Positions 7,959 to 36,382 of a DNA stretch of 64,000 nucleotides are shown here, one piece after another. Source of the DNA: Promethearchaeati archaeon SRVP18_Atabeyarchaeia-1. Its GTDB lineage: Archaea > Asgardarchaeota > Atabeyarchaeia > Atabeyarchaeales > Atabeyarchaeaceae. Positions within the stretch are counted from its first letter, which is position 1. The number at the start of each line of letters is the position of its first letter. The stretch spans positions 2,080,001-2,144,000 of the forward strand of contig CP147779.1 in assembly GCA_037308085.1 (NCBI GenBank), read 5' to 3'. Under the pieces are notes generated by a model. It was given only the letters and a program-made list of their open reading frames with translations. It had not been told where the DNA came from and searched no databases. A program made the position numbers and the translations under genes.

Positions 7959-8597
7959 TCAGCCGGAAAGAAAGCAGTAGGCACCCACGGCGCCCACAAG
8001 GATGTTCAGCGGTTGAGCCGCCAGGTACGAGAAGAACGGGTCTACGGTTGCCATGCATGAGAAGACGTATAGGATTCCCGCGACGAGCCACAGGTCACTG
8101 TGCTTAGAATACTTCCGGAAGACGAGGAAAAACGCTCCCAGTAGCCCAGCGGTCAGACCAAGAAGAATGCTATATGAGAAGAAGATTTGCCATCCGAGTG
8201 TAGTCAGGGTGTACGATCCGGGATACATGGTCGAGACTATTGCTCCGGAGTAGACCAGAAAGTGGTAAAGGATGCCGGCAACTGCAGCATTAAGGCCAAA
8301 TATGGCTGCTGCTAAGCCCACGGCGTTTCTCTTGGTTCTCGACGCAACTCTCGCCATGGAAATGAACAGCAACAGGACAAAGAGTACGAAGAGAGGATAG
8401 TCAATAATCGCAATTAATGGGCTGATGAGGACTTCATATGGGAATCCTACCATGGAAATCGTGGCAGAGGCAAGATAGAGAACCGCGAAGTAGATCGCAA
8501 GGAGTGACTGCGCAGCTCCTCCGACGGCGAGCTCGTGCTGAGTCAGCAAGGTCGGCTCTCTTCTCGTAGGTTCGCTGGGTTCCGATTCGGTCATCAT
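7959..8597 (-). CDS. Multi-pass membrane protein, paralog of the upstream gene
   Basis: About 6 hydrophobic helices; shares GG.AQ, S.LWL.AG..YV and G.VGA.CFLSG with 8609..9421; GAGGAG SD before ATG 8597. Confidence 0.7.
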   Translation of the reverse strand: MMTESEPSEPTRREPTLLTQHELAVGGAAQSLLAIYFAVLYLASATISMVGFPYEVLISPLIAIIDYPLFVLFVLLLFISMARVASRTKRNAVGLAAAIFGLNAAVAGILYHFLVYSGAIVSTMYPGSYTLTTLGWQIFFSYSILLGLTAGLLGAFFLVFRKYSKHSDLWLVAGILYVFSCMATVDPFFSYLAAQPLNILVGAVGAYCFLSG

Positions 8598-8608
8598 CTC
8601 TTGCTCCT

Positions 8609-9421
8609 CTACGTTTTTTGGGTTGCTCCGCCGCTCAGGAAGCATGTAGCACCCACGATTCCGGCGACAACAGTGGTGCTGGGGAACTCAAAGATAATCG
8701 GATACGCAAGTCCTGATATCCCTGCCATTACATATATTAGACCCGCTATCAGCCAAAGCTCACTATCCGAGTAGAGCCTCCTGTGCACCATCAGGAAGAT
8801 GCCGGTTGACACCAGGGTCAGGTCAACGGATATGGCGCCTATTGTCTGGAGGGACAGCAAGAACTGACCCATGGCACTGAGGTAATAGACTGGGAAGGCA
8901 ACTGCTTGGCCAAGTAGCAGACAGCCATAGAAGAACGCCATGGTTATGAAGGCTATGAGCCCAAGCGCAAAAACCGCTGTTCCTAGGCGACGTGGGGGAA
9001 AACGTCCATCGATTCGCCCGCTTGAGACTCTGAAGGCTATTACAAAGATGAGGAAAATGAAAGCCACGAATATGCCCACTAGCGACATCGACAAGTAACC
9101 TCCGGTGATGTAAATTGGGGCTATATATCCGTAGTAAAAGTATGCCAGGTTCATCAAGATTGCTGCAACGACAAGAAAAGCTTGGGCGACGCCGCCAGGA
9201 ATGAGATCTGGGGCAGTTCCTCCCGAGACAAGCGGAATGGTTCTTCCGCCGCGAATCTGGCTCCGGATCTCGTCGATACTGAGAGATTCTGCGATTATCC
9301 TGATCAGCTCTTCTTTGGAAGCCGAAGACTGGACTTGAGATCTTGACGCCTCCCTGGCCATCTCCGCCAGCTGGCCATGGCTGAGCCCACGAAGTGCTCT
9401 CTCCTTTTTACCCTCTGGCAT
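8609..9421 (-). CDS. Multi-pass membrane protein with an N-terminal helix-extension-helix-like (Rho-N/SAP/LEM-type) motif
   Basis: LRGLSHGQLAEMARE...ASKEELIRII followed by about 6 TM helices. Confidence 0.65.
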   Translation of the reverse strand: MPEGKKERALRGLSHGQLAEMAREASRSQVQSSASKEELIRIIAESLSIDEIRSQIRGGRTIPLVSGGTAPDLIPGGVAQAFLVVAAILMNLAYFYYGYIAPIYITGGYLSMSLVGIFVAFIFLIFVIAFRVSSGRIDGRFPPRRLGTAVFALGLIAFITMAFFYGCLLLGQAVAFPVYYLSAMGQFLLSLQTIGAISVDLTLVSTGIFLMVHRRLYSDSELWLIAGLIYVMAGISGLAYPIIFEFPSTTVVAGIVGATCFLSGGATQKT

Positions 9422-9682
9422 CTCAGCCCCCTCTTCAGTCGCTATAAGCTCTGAGCCAACTTGTATTTAATAATTCCGAAGCGATTACCCTGAGAATCCG
9501 CGAAGGTGCTATCCTCCCCATTATCGACAGGACCTGCGCCTTACCATAAGCTGCTTTTCTCCGTCTCTCCAGTGCGCCAGGTCCGCGGCTCATCCTGGAT
9601 CATCTTCTCATTCTTCAAAGGGTTGGCCATTCTCATTGCAGGATCGCTATTTTAATAGTCTTCAGCGGTCTCTCTATGAGTA

Positions 9683-10876
9683 GTGGTGGGCCTCTCTTTG
9701 GGAGATATAATGCTTGGGACATCGGGCTGGTCATACGAGGAATGGGTGGAGCCTTTCTACAGGTTCAGGAAGATAAGCAAGCTCCGCTACTACAATAGTG
9801 TGTTCAAGACAGCCGAGATAGATTCCACCTTCTACCGGTACCCAAACGAGGGCACAGTTTTCGGCTGGCTCAGGTACACGGACCCCCGATTTGTCTTCAC
9901 TGCAAAGCTTCCGCGGCTAATTACTCATGACAAGATGCTTGACCTAAATCAAGGCGTCGAAGATGACCTTAACAGGTTCTGCCAATTGATGCGTCGCCTG
10001 CTTGATGCTGGCAAGCTTGGATGCCTCCTGATCCAGCTTCCTCCAAAGTTCACGGTGAACGAGATCGGGGATCTGGAGCGGTTCCTCGAGATTCTACCAA
10101 GAGAGTTCCAGTTCGCTGTAGAGTTCCGAGATCTGTCGTGGATAGTTGAGGATACCTGGAATCTCCTCTCAAAGCACAAGGTTGCTTATACTATTGTAGA
10201 TGAACCGCTCTTGCCCCCTGAGATAAGGGTCACTTCGAAGATTGCGTACTTCAGGTGGCATGGCAAGGGGCGCAGACCTTGGTTTGACTACAGGTACAAG
10301 ATTGAGGAGTTGAAGCCATGGGTACCAAGAGTCAAGGAGGTTGCTACCAAAGCAGAGAAAGTCTACGGCTACTTCAACAATCATTATCACGGCTATGCCG
10401 TCGAGAATTGCCTACAGGTGCTTGAGATATTAGGTGCTTTGACCCCCGAACAATCCCGTGCCAAAGCGCACGTGGAGGCATCCTTCGCCAAGCCACAGAG
10501 AAATCTAAGATCTGAAGCTAAGGCAGGCGCACTTGATCAGTGGATGGGGCAAAGTCGCGAGGAGATAATCGAAGAACTCGCAGGTCAAGAGAGAATGAAG
10601 AGGGCCAGGAAGATCAAGGACGAGGAGATCAAGATCGAGGAGGCTACCGACTCTATTCTAAGGGCGACAGTCCGAGACTACCACGTTGTCATCGACACTG
10701 AGAACAAAGTGATACTCCACGACTGTGCAGACTGGGACAGGTTGATTCCCGAGAAGAAGCTGTGCAAGCACATGGCGAAGCTAATGCTCTTCGTAGACGA
10801 GGAGATCGCATCTAGCATTGTCAAGAAGATCCGCTCTGAGGTGGATCGATGGGAATTCAAGCCATACACTTCATAG
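9683..10876 (+). CDS. DUF72-domain protein with a C-terminal SWIM-like zinc finger
   Basis: LGTSGWSY, EIDSTFY, LIQLPP, VEFR, YFRWHG, YFNNH; C-terminal HDCADW...LCKH. Confidence 0.85.
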   Translation: MVGLSLGDIMLGTSGWSYEEWVEPFYRFRKISKLRYYNSVFKTAEIDSTFYRYPNEGTVFGWLRYTDPRFVFTAKLPRLITHDKMLDLNQGVEDDLNRFCQLMRRLLDAGKLGCLLIQLPPKFTVNEIGDLERFLEILPREFQFAVEFRDLSWIVEDTWNLLSKHKVAYTIVDEPLLPPEIRVTSKIAYFRWHGKGRRPWFDYRYKIEELKPWVPRVKEVATKAEKVYGYFNNHYHGYAVENCLQVLEILGALTPEQSRAKAHVEASFAKPQRNLRSEAKAGALDQWMGQSREEIIEELAGQERMKRARKIKDEEIKIEEATDSILRATVRDYHVVIDTENKVILHDCADWDRLIPEKKLCKHMAKLMLFVDEEIASSIVKKIRSEVDRWEFKPYTS

Positions 10877-10959
10877 CTTTCTATCTGGGTGTTTGGCCTC
10901 GAAGGGTGACCTGCGAGAAAAATAGTTAGGGGGAGAGTAGTCCCATCTCTATGCGTCAC

Positions 10960-11418
10960 TCACTCCTCTACTCTAACTGCCCCAGGTAAGAATGCGCCAA
11001 GCAGATCTCTCATGTGCTCAAACTCTTCATGACCACCCATAGAGATCTCTATTTCCTTCCCTTGCGTCGGCCTTATCTTGATGTGCCCGCGATGCAATGT
11101 GCCTGGCTTCTTAATCTCTATGTACGATATGTTCTCCTTGTAGACCTCAAAGTCCTTATCCTTCTCCAATTCCTTGATCTGCTTTGCTCCTTCGTCCTTC
11201 GTGAACGCCTGCGCAAAGGCGGATCTCAGTATGTCTCCTTTGACCGTGCCAGCGTGCCCGCCCATCAGGCCTGCGACCATCCAGCCACCTAAGACGCCTC
11301 TTCTCTTCTTGACGCCGATTATCCTTCTGCTCGTGGCATAGACTCCATAGCCCGACATGTGCCCTTTCTTGAAATTGGCGCTCGTCATGCCGCCGAAGTA
11401 CACTTCTTCTTGTTCCAA
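10960..11418 (-). CDS. Hypothetical protein, possible PH-like fold
   Basis: VYATSRRIIGVK...ISYIEIKK...GHIKI plus a C-terminal helix; probable TTG start at 11418 after GGGGT. Confidence 0.55.
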   Translation of the reverse strand: MEQEEVYFGGMTSANFKKGHMSGYGVYATSRRIIGVKKRRGVLGGWMVAGLMGGHAGTVKGDILRSAFAQAFTKDEGAKQIKELEKDKDFEVYKENISYIEIKKPGTLHRGHIKIRPTQGKEIEISMGGHEEFEHMRDLLGAFLPGAVRVEE

Positions 11419-30873: not shown

Positions 30874-31425
30874 CTAAATGACCCTCCTCAGCTCCTCGAG
30901 AAAAATGGCGTATGTCTCTGCATCATAAAGGCAGATAACAACTTCCTCCAAACTCCTTCTTCGCCCCCGCAGGAATGACTTGGCAGTAGCGAGCATTATC
31001 TTGGCACATCTAGCTTTTGGAAATCCAAATATGCCCGCCGAGATCGCTGGCAGCGCTACGCTCCTGAGCCCACTTGAATCAGCAAGCTTCAAGCAGTTCA
31101 GTGTCGCACTGCCAAGCTTCTCATCTTCGTTTCCCTCCCCGAACCTTGGCCCGACAGCGTGTATAACGTAACGAGCCTTCAGCTTGCCTCCGGAAGTGAT
31201 TACCGCTCCACCCACAGGGCAGTACCCGATCCTGTCACACTCATCTTGGATTGACTTTCCTCCTCGCCGTAGTACTGCCCCGGCAACACCGCCACCCATC
31301 TGGAGACGTGAGTTTGCCGCGTTCACTATAGCGTCAACATCCAGCTCAGTTATGTCTCCCTTGACGAGCCGCAAGATCGAATTACCTATTCTTAGCACGT
31401 CTTCCGCAACCAACTGATACCCCAC
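30874..31425 (-). CDS. Macro-domain protein (ADP-ribose binding/hydrolase, YmdB-like)
   Basis: GDIT...DAIVNAAN...GGGVAGA, VIHAVGP, PAISAGIFGFP. Confidence 0.93.
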   Translation of the reverse strand: MGYQLVAEDVLRIGNSILRLVKGDITELDVDAIVNAANSRLQMGGGVAGAVLRRGGKSIQDECDRIGYCPVGGAVITSGGKLKARYVIHAVGPRFGEGNEDEKLGSATLNCLKLADSSGLRSVALPAISAGIFGFPKARCAKIMLATAKSFLRGRRRSLEEVVICLYDAETYAIFLEELRRVI

Positions 31426-31451
31426 CGATAAAGCCAGGTCACAAAGTACTG

Positions 31452-32708
31452 TTAGCGAGTCTTCCTGTAGGCCACATAAACCGCGACAAAGAGTAGTGGA
31501 CTCAGGGCCAGCGTCAGCATAAAAGGCAGCTGCCTAGAATATGCGTAGAGGGTTCCCCCCAAGTAAGGCGTCGTAGCCTCAGCCGCATAGACAAATGTCC
31601 CAATTACGCCATAGGTCCTACCCACCCTTCTCCCAGCACTCAGCTCACCTATTGTGCTATATATAAGCGGGAACACTGCCCCGACTGAGCCCAGAAGCAC
31701 AAAACTCACAGGCAGGATTAACGAGTTAGAGTTCGGAACGAGGATCCAATACCCGAGAACAAGTGAAACGATGGGAACGGTCACTAGCGCGAGTTTCCTC
31801 GCTGGAGCGTATTTATCACTGAGTTTTCCGAGCAAGCTCACAATCACAACTGCTGAGAGGTTCGATACTGCATACATTACTTGTACGGAGAAGAAACTGA
31901 ATCCATATTCCTCGCTCAAATATAGAGGAATATAGGACCAACCCAAGTACACGACCCCCATGAAAAGACAGCTTAACGCAACCATCGGCGCAAGCCGCCT
32001 GAGAACGCTGCTCCCTTCGCTTGGTCCACGCTCTTTGCCACTATCGCCCCAACTTCCTCCGGTCCGCAATGTGTCCACGTTGCTTTCACTTGATAGATCG
32101 TCCGCGCCCCGAGCGGAAGCATCTACCTTAGTTGAGAGATCCCCCGGCAGTCTGGGAATCGCCAGAACAATGGCGGTGGATGCAAGATAGAGGATGAATG
32201 CGATGAAGAATATGGTGGTGAATCCGTACGCATCGTAGACCAGCCCGCCGATCAATGGAGATGCAATTAGACCTATTGACCCGGACGAGACTAGTATACC
32301 AAATGAGAGACCACGCTTTCCGGCGGGTGCGGCTTCGCTGGTGTATGACTGGACCGCTGCGACGCCTATCCAGCTTGAGCCAAACAGCGCAACACCTGGA
32401 AGCGCGTATAACCATGAGTTAGAAAGCTCGGCCAGAATAAAGAAGAAAGGAGCGAAAACGGGTAGTAACCATGAAGCTATTACGAGTGTCCTTCTGTGAC
32501 CGGCATCACTAAGAACTCCACCTGGCAGAAGGGTGAGGGCCATCGATGCAGACAGCAATGTCGCTACTAGGCCAATCTGAGGTGGGTTTGCATTCACGGT
32601 TGCCAGGAAGTTCGGAAAGATGTACCCGTAAATTCCATAGCCTAGCGTGAACACCACGTTGGACACGGCGAGTATATAGACAGCCCTCATCCGGCCTTCT
32701 CGCTTCAT
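31452..32708 (-). CDS. MFS transporter (12 TM)
   Basis: GVLSDAGHRR and GKLSDK motif-A loops; ATG 32708 after GGGGT. Confidence 0.85.
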   Translation of the reverse strand: MKREGRMRAVYILAVSNVVFTLGYGIYGYIFPNFLATVNANPPQIGLVATLLSASMALTLLPGGVLSDAGHRRTLVIASWLLPVFAPFFFILAELSNSWLYALPGVALFGSSWIGVAAVQSYTSEAAPAGKRGLSFGILVSSGSIGLIASPLIGGLVYDAYGFTTIFFIAFILYLASTAIVLAIPRLPGDLSTKVDASARGADDLSSESNVDTLRTGGSWGDSGKERGPSEGSSVLRRLAPMVALSCLFMGVVYLGWSYIPLYLSEEYGFSFFSVQVMYAVSNLSAVVIVSLLGKLSDKYAPARKLALVTVPIVSLVLGYWILVPNSNSLILPVSFVLLGSVGAVFPLIYSTIGELSAGRRVGRTYGVIGTFVYAAEATTPYLGGTLYAYSRQLPFMLTLALSPLLFVAVYVAYRKTR

Positions 32709-33086
32709 CCCGGTCAACCCCAGTGTCACATGCGTGCCAAACGCGCGCCCAGAGCCACGATCACTTCGGAAAGGCAGATTAAGCTTATCCTGCCAAAACC
32801 AAGCTGGGAAATAGGTCTCAAAGGAAACAGTTACACGAATCCGCTTAGTATTAGAAGGAGCCCCCAAATATACCGGCGGCTTCGAGCGCTGATGGCTAGT
32901 TCTTTCTCAGAGATCTCCGGGGAATCATTTTCCTGTAGGCTGTCCTCCCTGACGAACCATCTCACCCCAGAATCGATTGTCTATTCTACCAGCCACGTGT
33001 AGGAAGATGACAATCCTGCCAAGCATAATCCAAGAAGACACGCTGAGAAGTAGATGCCAGGCAACTCAGAGTATCCAGTGTTCCCT

Positions 33087-33620
33087 CTAGTTGTGCTGCG
33101 CCCTTTCGGTCATCTTGTTGGCAAGAGCCTTGAAGGCTTCATCTACGCCTGAATCAATTTTCGCAGATGTCTCAACATATGTTGAATCGTATTCTGTCGC
33201 AAATTGAGTGCCTTCTTCGACTGGAACTCCGACTATTCCCTCACCTGGGTTTCTCAAATCCACCTTGTTGCCAACGACTATCATGGGTATCTTGCCGAGT
33301 ATCGCCTGGACTCTCTCGATCCAGTCAACTAGTCGATCCATGGAAGCCTTCCTGGTCACGTCGAAGACGGCCAGCATCCCCTTCGCACCCCTGAAATATA
33401 TGTCTGCAACTTCTTTGAAGTGGGGTTGTCCTCCCAGATCCCAGATCTGGAGGATCATGTCTCCAGCCCCATTTGATATCTTTTTGACTGAGAGGTCGAC
33501 TCCAATGGTCATCTTCATGTCTTGCGCGAAGGCGTCATCCACGTACTGCCTCACAAGGGACGTTTTGCCAACGCCGCCTTCTCCAATGACGATGATCTTG
33601 AAGACATTCCTTCTTATCAT
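33087..33620 (-). CDS. Rab/Ras-like small GTPase
   Basis: G1 GEGGVGKT, G2 TIGVD, G3 WDLGGQ, YFRGA, G4 NKVD, G5 ETSAK; no C-terminal prenylation Cys. Confidence 0.93.
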   Translation of the reverse strand: MIRRNVFKIIVIGEGGVGKTSLVRQYVDDAFAQDMKMTIGVDLSVKKISNGAGDMILQIWDLGGQPHFKEVADIYFRGAKGMLAVFDVTRKASMDRLVDWIERVQAILGKIPMIVVGNKVDLRNPGEGIVGVPVEEGTQFATEYDSTYVETSAKIDSGVDEAFKALANKMTERAQHN

Positions 33621-33623
33621 TGC

Positions 33624-35138
33624 CTACCGTTTCCTCCGCTCATAGAACCATCTGTCGAACCTTCCAGAGACACCCAAGAAGAAAATCAGCGCGCCAAGGA
33701 GAGCAAAGACGGCCCCCAATAGGCCAAGCAGCGAGCCCACGTACGCTATCGGGTCAGGGGTAAAGGCACTTATGACCTCAAGGGGAGAGGCGAATATTAG
33801 GAAAAGGAACCCTATGAAGATTCCCAGAACTCTTCCCCTTCCTCTCTCTTTTGCCTTGCTCATCCTCCGCAACAAGACACCGAACATTGCCCCTGGGGTC
33901 ACCGTTATCGCCAGACCCGCAGCTGCCATAATAATCAGAAACCACACAGGCATTGGATACAACATGATCGATATTATGACAAGTGGCGCAATGACTAGGG
34001 CAGGAGCCAAAATCAGGGATTTGCGGTCCAGAGCATACATGGCCGCAACAAATAGGAACCCACCAGTCAACATTCCAACTGGCAAGGCGATCATGTCGAA
34101 CCAAGGATAACGCGCCCCTGACAAGGCATAGATATCCTGACCCACGACAGACAACAAGAAGTCTAACCCAGCGAAAAATGAGAACAGCGAAAGCGCCAAG
34201 GTTTGTTTCGAACGACTCTCCCTGTATCGCCCATAGACGTACGAGCCACCCAGAATGAATATCATCGCCGCAATAGTCGTCAAGACCAAGCTGGCGACAT
34301 ATAGGAACGGAAACGCTCCAAGAAACAGAAGCAGGATGTAGATCTCCAGGCTCACCACCGGCATGGTAATCGTGTACCCGATGATCTCCCCGCCGATTTT
34401 TCTCTCGGAGTACTGGAAGAACCAGTAGATCAACGACAGCGAGGCGACCCCTATGAAGATCATCATCGGCATAAGTGAGATGAGATCCTGATACAGCGCG
34501 ACGTGACGGAAGTATTCTGGCGGAACTAGGTAGAAGCCAAGATATCCGATGTATTCGGACACCGTACGTGTATAGTAAAAGAAATAGGCATAGTATATGA
34601 TCAGCCCCAAAAACATGCCGAGAGCGGTTTTACGCTTAGTTCTCCTCCAGAGATATCCGAAGAGAACCATCGGTATCAGAAGCAGTAGTGAAACCGTGGC
34701 CACCCATATTGACAGATACGGGTCATCCAGAGGATGTTTTGGTGAGAGTAGTGACAAGGCGTAGGCGATTGCTAGCAGGCCCACAGGCAGCGCGTAGAAC
34801 CGGGGTCTTCTAAGAGAACCAACTACAGCTACAAGAAGAGCGAAGCCAAACAGCGGCATTGCTAACTCGGAGATCAGGTTCCACGGATACAGCGCGTCAA
34901 TAGAAGAAGGAGGAAGGATCGCAGGGGGGGATGGAAGAGCCAGAAATGAGTAGAAGGTAACCAAACTTGAGATCAACCCAAGCAAGAAGGAAAGTGAAAT
35001 AACAAGTGTAGGCGTGAGCGCCGATCTTTGGTCAACCGGGGTCTTACCTACTCTACCCCTATAGAAATTCAGTACAGATACGAAGCTGAATGCAAAGTTG
35101 AATCCCATGATAACTGCAGCAGCAGAAAGCGCATCCAT
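33624..35138 (-). CDS. 15-TM membrane protein with internal 7TM+1+7TM duplication
   Basis: AGGAGA SD before ATG 35138; 15 hydrophobic segments; repeats YPW..AMP/YPW..ALP, PMVLFGYLWRR/PGAMFGVLLRR, ALGMFLG/VLGIFIG. Confidence 0.8.
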   Translation of the reverse strand: MDALSAAAVIMGFNFAFSFVSVLNFYRGRVGKTPVDQRSALTPTLVISLSFLLGLISSLVTFYSFLALPSPPAILPPSSIDALYPWNLISELAMPLFGFALLVAVVGSLRRPRFYALPVGLLAIAYALSLLSPKHPLDDPYLSIWVATVSLLLLIPMVLFGYLWRRTKRKTALGMFLGLIIYYAYFFYYTRTVSEYIGYLGFYLVPPEYFRHVALYQDLISLMPMMIFIGVASLSLIYWFFQYSERKIGGEIIGYTITMPVVSLEIYILLLFLGAFPFLYVASLVLTTIAAMIFILGGSYVYGRYRESRSKQTLALSLFSFFAGLDFLLSVVGQDIYALSGARYPWFDMIALPVGMLTGGFLFVAAMYALDRKSLILAPALVIAPLVIISIMLYPMPVWFLIIMAAAGLAITVTPGAMFGVLLRRMSKAKERGRGRVLGIFIGFLFLIFASPLEVISAFTPDPIAYVGSLLGLLGAVFALLGALIFFLGVSGRFDRWFYERRKR

Positions 35139-35164: not shown

Positions 35165-35557
35165 CTATAGACCCACTTCTGCCCAACTAGCCACCCTATC
35201 TCTTAGGCTGATCTTCTTCGTCACGGCATCCCTGATCTCCATCTCGACTAGTTTGTCCGCGAAGCTATTCTGATGATCCTCTATAATCTTGCAGACCTCA
35301 TGCAGCCGCCACTTGGCATCCTGGTCGCCTTTGTCAGCCACGAGGGCGACATATACGTGCCCATTTGCCTTGATGTGGAACTTGAAGTCCTTTACGTTGA
35401 TCTCCTCGATATCACCCTGTGCGATCTTCTTAGAGAATGACTCCATTGCAGAAAGGAATCCAGTGAGAAGGGTGCTGTCGGCCTCAATGCTTCCGAGTTT
35501 CATGGTTACGAGAGGCTCTCCGTTCTCGCTGAATACATACACATTATGGACTGTCAT
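35165..35557 (-). CDS. Longin-like domain protein
   Basis: VYVFSENGEPL...DSTLLTGFLSAMESFS...IEEI...VYVALVAD pattern typical of Asgard longin-fold proteins. Confidence 0.72.
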   Translation of the reverse strand: MTVHNVYVFSENGEPLVTMKLGSIEADSTLLTGFLSAMESFSKKIAQGDIEEINVKDFKFHIKANGHVYVALVADKGDQDAKWRLHEVCKIIEDHQNSFADKLVEMEIRDAVTKKISLRDRVASWAEVGL

Positions 35558-35605: not shown

Positions 35606-35857
35606 TCATAGTTCCGCGATCCATTTTCTGGCTTTGTCAAGTCCACCCTCTGTCTTCGGATCAACCAGCGGCTCTGCATCCCTTATCTTGAACTGTCTGT
35701 CAACATAGAGTGCAACATCGTGCTTGCTTGGGCATCTTGCGGGCACAAGTGCCGGAGTGCGCTTAGAATCAAGTATATCTTCCTCCTTGATTATTATCCC
35801 CGTGATCATCGTCTTGCAGACCGGGCAGGGGTACCCAGCAAGTTTTCTTTCAGGCAT
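35606..35857 (-). CDS. Small putative Zn-binding protein
   Basis: CPVC...CPSKH..ALYVDRQFKIR. Confidence 0.7.
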   Translation of the reverse strand: MPERKLAGYPCPVCKTMITGIIIKEEDILDSKRTPALVPARCPSKHDVALYVDRQFKIRDAEPLVDPKTEGGLDKARKWIAEL

Positions 35858-36382
35858 AGCCCAAACAGACCTCTAGCTTCGATGTCTCCCTTTGTAAGAC
35901 GTGTTGATCTTGGAGTTCTGGGTTAGTTTCCTAAGGCAGTTTACTCCTATTACTCACTTATAGGGGATGGTATTTTTAAGATGTTCTGGCTGTGCTCGAT
36001 CCGTGAGCCCTTCTGTTGCGGAGGTCGCATTATTAGAATAAAAATTCGCTGTTGCGACAAGCTGCACTTCAAAGAAAGAAGAGATTCTGCATCCACTTCT
36101 CAGAATTCCCGTACTGCCGATTTCCAGTTCCGCGCAAAAATCGCCGACTGCCCTTCCGCGCGCGTGTTTCCTCCGACATGCGCCCCACGCACCCAGAGTC
36201 AAGCATTCGAACGAACCTAGTTCCGCCTTCATTCTGAACCCAGGACAAAGACCACACACTTATATTCACATGCCTTCACTCAGAGAAGGGAAGTGAGCGA
36301 CTCGCTGCGTATGACCGTCAATGCGAGAAGAGGCATGCCAGAGGAGCATTGCGCTTGAGCCCTTGCCGGAGGAAAGCAGGAA

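Follow-up and report, generated by a model that had tools for sequence, protein, structure and literature searches.

A tandem seven-helix membrane protein encoded in a four-gene small-GTPase operon of Asgard archaea

The operon and its membrane protein

The subject of this analysis is a 64,000-nucleotide stretch of the genome of Promethearchaeati archaeon SRVP18_Atabeyarchaeia-1 (contig CP147779.1, positions 2,080,001 to 2,144,000; referred to below as the window) and, within it, a minus-strand gene (P0001, 33624..35138) for a membrane protein with 15 predicted transmembrane helices, here called the 15TM protein. Inspection of its surroundings reveals an operon of four minus-strand genes, which encode, in order, a zinc ribbon-like protein of 83 amino acids (aa; 35606..35857), a longin-like protein of 130 aa (35165..35557), the 15TM protein and a Rab-like small GTPase of 177 aa (33087..33620). 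The intergenic gaps are 48, 26 and 3 nucleotides (nt) in that order, such that the longin-like gene lies 26 nt upstream of the 15TM gene and the GTPase gene starts 3 nt after the 15TM stop. This operon context provides the main clue to function, and it presents the 15TM protein as the membrane-embedded member of a four-protein small-GTPase module specific to some Asgard archaea.

The open reading frame and its translation give a protein of 504 aa that starts at an ATG and has its stop codon at 33624-33626. A 520-aa form started at a TTG 48 nt upstream was rejected: it overlaps the stop of the upstream gene, and a start at the position of the ATG (MDAL or MDPL) is common to 15 of 15 aligned homologues, none of which supports the TTG form. 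An AlphaFold2 model of the 504-aa protein based on 16 homologues (predicted local distance difference test, pLDDT, 85.6; predicted TM-score, pTM, 0.82) contains 15 long membrane helices, in agreement with the 15 hydrophobic segments of the original prediction for this gene, which had been made from the letters of the DNA. The first seven-helix (7TM) unit is predicted to span residues 1-246 (34401..35138, minus strand), with its N terminus outside and transmembrane helices TM1-TM7 at residues 3-32, 35-67, 85-109, 112-131, 141-167, 170-200 and 223-245. It is followed by a linker region of residues 247-277 (34308..34400, minus strand), delimited from the helix list and an alignment of 49 sequences, which holds TM8 (251-271). 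The second 7TM unit is predicted at residues 278-504 (33627..34307, minus strand), with TM9-TM15 at 278-308, 311-340, 345-369, 378-392, 398-429, 434-459 and 470-490. Two extra helices complete the model, namely a short outer helix at 206-220 and a basic amphipathic helix at 493-503, which closes the second unit in a position like that of helix 8 in G-protein-coupled receptors (GPCRs). The AlphaFold2 model shows no soluble domain in the 15TM protein, and Pfam finds neither HATPase nor HisKA in it.

Three observations on related proteins touch this helix arrangement. At the cytoplasmic end of TM11, the third helix of the second unit (residues ~367-373, window 33960-34040, minus strand), the family conserves a stretch of the form A-L-D/E-W/R-K/R, placed much as the D/ERY motif is at the end of TM3 in class A GPCRs, which may be coincidence. 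One group of Thorarchaeota paralogues (L095-L100) stops right after a GR.DR motif, and the basic C-terminal helix is absent from it. For four Thorarchaeota paralogues with a TAG inside the profile match, a recoded stop was considered and rejected: the TAG is the ordinary stop codon, and the profile match runs on slightly, by a few residues, past it.

Internal duplication, orientation and predicted fold

Comparison of the two halves of the 15TM protein supports an internal duplication of a 7TM unit. BLASTP aligned residues 81-180 with 341-445 at 28% identity (E 0.002) and recovered the motif pairs from which the original prediction had, by eye, set TM1-7 against TM9-15. Profile-profile comparison of the halves gave E 4.3e-7 with 16 homologues and E 6.8e-11 with 36 (probability 97.1%, 177 columns), and the latter alignment places residues 3-198 on 279-465. 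The proposed repeat therefore stands as a significant one for TM1-6 on TM9-14, whereas the equivalence of TM7 and TM15 falls outside the aligned stretch and would follow from the models. Significance was judged against reversed-profile controls, which reached E 0.14 and 0.26; the repeat signal is thus not one of hydrophobic composition. A block-shuffle control scored 27-50, but it keeps local motifs and hence provides no clean null. The profiles support homology of the two halves.

The side of the membrane was addressed by labelling segments from the AlphaFold2 model and then counting lysine and arginine residues. The window protein has 33 such residues in cytoplasmic segments, 3 outside and 1 in the membrane, and among 49 family members the means are 23.1 inside and 1.5 outside, with a maximum of 3 outside. 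By the positive-inside rule, this bias supports a predicted orientation of each unit with the N terminus outside and the C terminus inside (N-out/C-in), as had been proposed from the basic loops. If both units are so oriented, the odd helix TM8 must return the chain to the outside and the units would lie parallel to one another, from which the earlier description of TM8 as a linker follows.

Structural comparison of the predicted models returned GPCRs as the best matches of both halves. Against the PDB, neither the whole model nor the N half had a Foldseek match at E <= 0.001; the weak rows mix GPCRs with microbial rhodopsins at TM-scores of 0.4-0.54, and the Z score of the N half lies within the range usual for helical bundles. 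LYCHOS/GPR155 is the top row for the whole model, at a non-significant E of 0.08, and transporter folds are missing from the top structural rows of both halves. The GPCR-like topology of the original prediction is thereby reflected in the best matches of both halves, though not in a match that passes the threshold, and no transporter fold displaces it. Both units are predicted to be seven-helix bundles packed as in GPCRs, which is a likeness of predicted folds with uncertain ancestry.

Family searches place the protein apart from described families. For the window protein and 49 family members, no Pfam family was found at E <= 0.1 beyond chance-level matches (DUF6442, E 0.016; p53-inducible11 in 3 of the 49 members), and the GPCR profiles of Pfam (7tm_1, 7tm_2, 7tm_3, Frizzled and others) gave no significant match. 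The seven helices in N-out/C-in orientation that characterize GPCRs are predicted here by two AlphaFold2 models and the lysine and arginine counts; the G protein of the operon is a Ras-family small GTPase, not a G-alpha subunit. Microbial (type I) rhodopsins were rejected as relatives, since direct reading of the sequence confirms that neither TM7 (223-245) nor TM15 (470-490) holds a lysine, leaving the retinal position without one as the original prediction had stated, and no bacteriorhodopsin-like family match was found. PAQR or hemolysin III hydrolases were rejected on the predicted orientation of the 15TM protein, which is opposite to theirs, the lack of family-wide His or Asp residues in the membrane helices here and weak structural rows. 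A membrane sensor of the actinobacterial conservon type was rejected as well, the 15TM protein being without a histidine-kinase/ATPase module. The 15TM protein is a new family that belongs to no described one, and its covalent double seven-helix architecture is unusual.

Internal repeats are typical of secondary transporters, and the protein might accordingly be a transporter or transceptor, in which the parallel repeats form a solute path and the GTPase module regulates or reports on transport, as with Rag GTPases and either SLC38A9 or the transporter part of LYCHOS. The NCBIfam model TIGR00900 (major facilitator superfamily (MFS) H+ antiporter subfamily) matches the 15TM protein with E 6e-6, yet the score of 25.8 bits lies well under the cut-off of 319.6, and the MFS families of Pfam gave no match in it. 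MFS genes flank the operon and LYCHOS/GPR155 heads the non-significant Foldseek rows, but the top structural matches of both halves include no transporter fold. The membrane core also lacks family-conserved charged or polar residues, with conservation there limited to prolines and small residues, and a parallel 7+1+7 arrangement is not a known transporter architecture. We consider a transport function quite improbable.

The distribution of conserved positions provides a further view of the protein. Averaged over the 49-sequence alignment, conservation reaches 0.557 in cytoplasmic, 0.475 in membrane and 0.243 in outer segments, the last of which contain 35% gaps. The 40 most conserved positions divide into 18 cytoplasmic, 21 membrane and 1 outside. 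Among the invariant residues are E251 and Y255 at the cytoplasmic start of TM8, R304 after TM9, P379, P415 and G492. Constraint thus lies on the face where soluble partners would sit, and freedom lies in the variable outer loops, where a classical receptor binds an external ligand.

This pattern bears on the idea that the double 7TM protein is a true signal receptor in direct contact with the Rab-like GTPase, on which it would catalyse nucleotide exchange in the way of GPCRs on G-alpha, possibly with an ancestry in common with eukaryotic GPCRs. Such direct coupling would agree with GPCRs as the best match of both bundles, with the helix 8-like C-terminal helix and the strong conservation of the loop equivalent to intracellular loop 3, and with a GTPase gene that begins only 3 nt past the 15TM gene. 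It would have to be reconciled, however, with the absence of any sequence link to a GPCR family and of a significant Foldseek match, and with outer loops that are short, variable and gap-rich and show no evident conserved ligand site. Moreover, the longin-like protein is of the kind that usually regulates GTPases, making catalysis by the receptor unnecessary, and two loci (L005 and L006) keep the zinc, longin-like and 15TM genes without a GTPase gene. Direct coupling therefore appears distinctly unlikely.

Conservation of the operon and nature of its partners

Close homologues of the 15TM protein number 19, all of them hypothetical proteins of Asgard archaea, with Candidatus Atabeyarchaeum deiterrae and Njordarchaeota as sources. 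Searched exhaustively with HMMER, a set of 1.84 billion representative proteins yielded only 21 at E <= 0.001. Distant homologues (~450-470 aa, 20-28% identity) align end to end and miss only the outer insert at residues 193-218. The tandem protein was found in 53 of 400 Asgard genomes, in 1-3 copies each, including all 3 genomes of family f1, 3 of 19 in f12 and 44 of ~89 in f31; the families that have it carry the labels Atabeyarchaeum/Njordarchaeota, Thorarchaeota, Hermodarchaeota and Promethearchaeota. A scan at species level, covering one genome per prokaryotic species with two peptide patterns of the f31 group, gave 21 loci (mostly Thorarchaeota, with 3 Promethearchaeota, 1 Hermodarchaeota and 2 uncultured archaeon), a result that depends on the patterns and is no proof of absence elsewhere. 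In one Atabeyarchaeia relative (L003), the 15TM gene is present as a tandem duplicate (8264-9778 and 9864-11357) between the longin-like and GTPase genes, encoding copies of 504 aa and 497 aa with ~54% identity to the window protein.

The gene order of the operon persists well beyond close relatives. A script run over ~35 loci, including L010, L012-L040 and those of Atabeyarchaeia, found the order zinc, longin-like, 15TM and GTPase in nearly all of them, across three Asgard families (f1, f12 and f31), and in these loci the zinc gene is invariably upstream of the longin-like gene. The same order occurs at distant homologues (~22-25% identity) with other flanking genes; the flanks of L010 are quite different, which argues that the order is not merely inherited synteny. 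These observations speak to the possibility that the 15TM protein is a functionally unrelated neighbour, acting for example in lipid handling, in membrane structure or as a PAQR-type enzyme, and is co-transcribed for shared regulation only. Persistence of the four-gene order to ~22% identity across differing flanks is set against this, as is the focus of conservation on the cytoplasmic face, where soluble partners would be. The PAQR variant would further require an N terminus inside and a His/Asp metal site, and matching family-wide residues are absent here. We judge an unrelated role to be very improbable.

The GTPase is clearly assigned. It matches Pfam Ras with E 3.8e-45, its nearest PDB structures are the Thorarchaeota Rab 7ezb, Rab18, Rab1a and Sec4, and its G1-G5 motifs are intact, including DxxGQ with the catalytic Gln. 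Its C terminus holds no Cys and hence no lipidation site.

Matches of the longin-like protein are weaker. Of 27 orthologues, 10 match Pfam Fuz_longin_1, at best with E 0.0016 and a score short of the gathering threshold, and weak matches also occur to Robl_LC7 in 3 and to Sybindin in 1; a profile search of the PDB gave longin domain 1 of MON1 at E 0.17 and Bet5 at E 0.46. The domain belongs to a very large Asgard family, present in 392 of 400 genomes in several copies each. In other Asgard families it is fused to a Ras-like GTPase domain (L101, 844-1821, minus strand, 326 aa; L102, 851-1867, minus strand, 339 aa), which provides independent evidence that such longin domains work with such GTPases. 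A profile search of an index of 5.8 billion proteins gave no longer protein with the longin-like domain, while the genome search did give these GTPase fusions, and none of 7 sampled long open reading frames that contain a longin-like domain has a 7TM part. In three other reading frames (L103, 953-2272, plus strand; L105, 92-1378, plus strand; L106, 979-1824, plus strand), the longin-like domain is followed by one or two domains of ~130 aa with a repeated motif, ILLEVIASGKPL, and no membrane helices; this second domain is possibly a DENN-like or other GTPase-regulator module.

The 83-aa protein is encoded by the first gene of the operon. It belongs to no Pfam family, and its Cys/His pattern, with C11, C14 and C42 invariant and H46 near-invariant among 26 orthologues, suggests a zinc ribbon-like protein. 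The zinc and longin-like proteins have in common a conserved C-terminal motif, (K/R)A..W followed by 4-5 residues, which reads DKA.KW...F in the former (window 35606-35640, minus strand) and RA..WASKML in the latter (35165-35200, minus strand). With two like units in the membrane protein and two similar tails in its small partners, the tails might be equivalent docking helices, each of which docks on one unit.

Single-unit relatives of the bundle (~200-290 aa) provide a view of how the tandem protein arose. They occur in 68 of 400 Asgard genomes, mainly in families without the tandem form (f9, f10, f15-17 and f20), with examples at L041 (3806-4874, minus strand), L073 (197-3157, minus strand), L042 (4377-5201, plus strand) and L043 (2083-2868, plus strand). 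A profile of the single units matches the C half of the window protein with E 2.9e-5, and the single units start just past TM8. When the C half alone was searched against proteins of 128-408 aa, all matches were fragments of the full-length family. Because single units are found mainly where the tandem form is absent and their profile matches the C half, the duplication likely started from such a single unit. The longin-like gene adjoins a single unit in 3 of 30 loci, in two other families, and one locus has the pair twice in tandem; in a few single-unit loci the bundle gene lies directly downstream of the longin-like gene. The link to the longin-like protein thus appears to predate the fusion in at least some lineages, and is not general.

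Features next to the operon complete the description of the locus. In the window (30874-32867, minus strand), as in L001 and L003 from Atabeyarchaeia relatives, the operon is trailed by genes for an MFS transporter and a macro-domain protein. In L001 the zinc gene is closely preceded by genes for a GNAT acetyltransferase and another Rab-like GTPase. A/T-rich, TATA-like stretches (TTAAAAATA and TATAAG; 35945..35980, minus strand) lie ~90-120 nt upstream of the first gene and are a possible archaeal promoter.

Proposed function and relation to known systems

We interpret the 15TM protein as a membrane platform or receptor for a longin/GTPase module in some Asgard archaea, a reading to which we assign a probability of roughly 55%. 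The double bundle would form a platform at the cell membrane. On its basic cytoplasmic face, the loops and the C-terminal helix would bind the longin-like protein, and probably also the zinc protein, possibly through the similar C-terminal helices of the two. Elsewhere, longin/roadblock proteins act on GTPases as exchange factors or activators, and the longin-like protein would act on the Rab-like GTPase in one of these two capacities. The GTP cycle of a GTPase without a lipid anchor would thereby be placed at the membrane. It is also possible that the bundles detect and relay some cue, such as a lipid, the condition of the membrane or a ligand held inside a bundle, but no conserved outer surface points to this. 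The need for a membrane anchor that follows from the absence of a lipid anchor in Asgard Rabs (PMC10933270) counts in favour of a platform. So do the repeat and charge pattern of the 15TM protein with its GPCR-like best matches, the tight and persistent gene order, the concentration of conserved positions on the inner face, the fusions of longin-like to Ras-like GTPase domains and the few single units that adjoin longin-like genes.

Several points weigh against this interpretation. All contacts among the four proteins are inferred, the GPCR-like fold stands on predicted models and shallow alignments (16-40 sequences), and the longin assignment of the 130-aa protein lies under curated thresholds. 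The closest relatives share flanking genes (MFS, macro domain and tRNA synthetase), and their loci are not independent of one another. Further, L005 and L006 have no GTPase neighbour, L009 is a lone paralogue that misses all three neighbours, and 27 of 30 single-unit relatives have neither a longin nor a GTPase neighbour.

A stronger form of the idea is a working receptor, in which a signal sensed by one or both bundles changes the cytoplasmic face and directly sets the nucleotide state of the GTPase, with the small proteins as tail-docked cofactors. We regard this as unlikely. If true, the lineage closest to eukaryotes would have a receptor-to-G-protein switch of prokaryotic kind, possibly related to the ancestor from which the 7TM receptors of eukaryotes descend.

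In its logic, the closest known system is the actinobacterial conservon CvnA-D, a four-gene operon that has been likened to G-protein-coupled regulation since 2006 (Komatsu 2006 in PMC12236503; PMC4316618). Conservon and Asgard operon alike encode a membrane protein, a protein of the roadblock/longin superfamily or resembling it, a small protein of unknown function and a Ras-superfamily GTPase. The members themselves differ: the membrane component of the conservon, a histidine-kinase-like sensor, carries HAMP and ATPase domains, in contrast to the 7TM bundles here; its GTPase is of the MglA type, in contrast to a Rab-like one with a catalytic Gln; and CvnC (DUF742) is not a zinc ribbon. Where the conservon has an MglB-type roadblock protein, the partner here matches longin/roadblock models below threshold only, whereas its GTPase is clear. 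One system is bacterial and the other archaeal, and beyond the GTPase superfamily the two showed no relationship in sequence.

Comparison with eukaryotic systems reveals a similar mixture of likeness and difference. Eukaryotic GPCRs (adhesion/secretin, class C and others) share no sequence family with the 15TM protein, which has two units and a linker in one chain and no evident conserved ligand-binding surface on its outer side. They couple to a heterotrimeric G protein, whereas the partners here are a small Rab-like GTPase and a longin-like protein. Mon1-Ccz1, the TRAPP core (Bet5/Trs23), Ragulator-Rag with SLC38A9 or LYCHOS, and MglA-MglB likewise bring longin/roadblock proteins and Ras-superfamily GTPases together at a membrane; the weak matches of the longin-like protein fall on longin domain 1 of MON1/FUZ and on Bet5, and LYCHOS also has a GPCR-like bundle. 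These systems reach the membrane through lipid anchors, lipid-binding patches or separate transporters, in contrast to the operon-encoded double 7TM protein described here.

Within Asgard archaea, a conserved operon has been reported in which a Rab-like GTPase is encoded beside a LAMTOR1-like roadblock protein and a DENN protein (Liu et al., bioRxiv 10.1101/2020.10.19.343400). It resembles the present operon in pairing a Rab-like GTPase with a roadblock-superfamily regulator, and differs in having no membrane protein or zinc ribbon, with the DENN protein instead. Structural clusters that span Asgard archaea and eukaryotes, as listed without detail in a 2026 preprint (10.64898/2026.10.28.762692), include '7TM proteins' and 'a class C GPCR'. 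No published description of the tandem 7TM protein or of the four-gene operon was found in the literature covered, which excludes subscription journals. Overall, the operon is a variant of the membrane-linked small-GTPase module, with a new double seven-helix membrane member.

Asgard archaea have dozens of Rab-, Arf- and Rag-like GTPases and many longin/roadblock proteins. Which regulator serves which GTPase is a stated problem (PMC10933270), for which the operon names one of each partner; in MK-D1, operons rarely pair GTPases with regulators (Tran et al., PMC10933270). Asgard Rabs are without the prenylation Cys and the prenylation machinery, and their route to the membrane is unsolved (Tran et al., PMC10933270). 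The four partners, kept together across Thorarchaeota, Atabeyarchaeia/Njordarchaeota and a third family, are co-expressible, testable candidates. Should the bundles signal to the GTPase, the module would be informative about how receptor-coupled GTPase signalling arose in eukaryotes; should they serve as an anchor alone, the 15TM protein would still be the first membrane receptor concretely identified for a Rab-like GTPase of archaea. The module is thus a candidate for how relatives of eukaryotes tie a GTPase switch that lacks a lipid anchor to the membrane.

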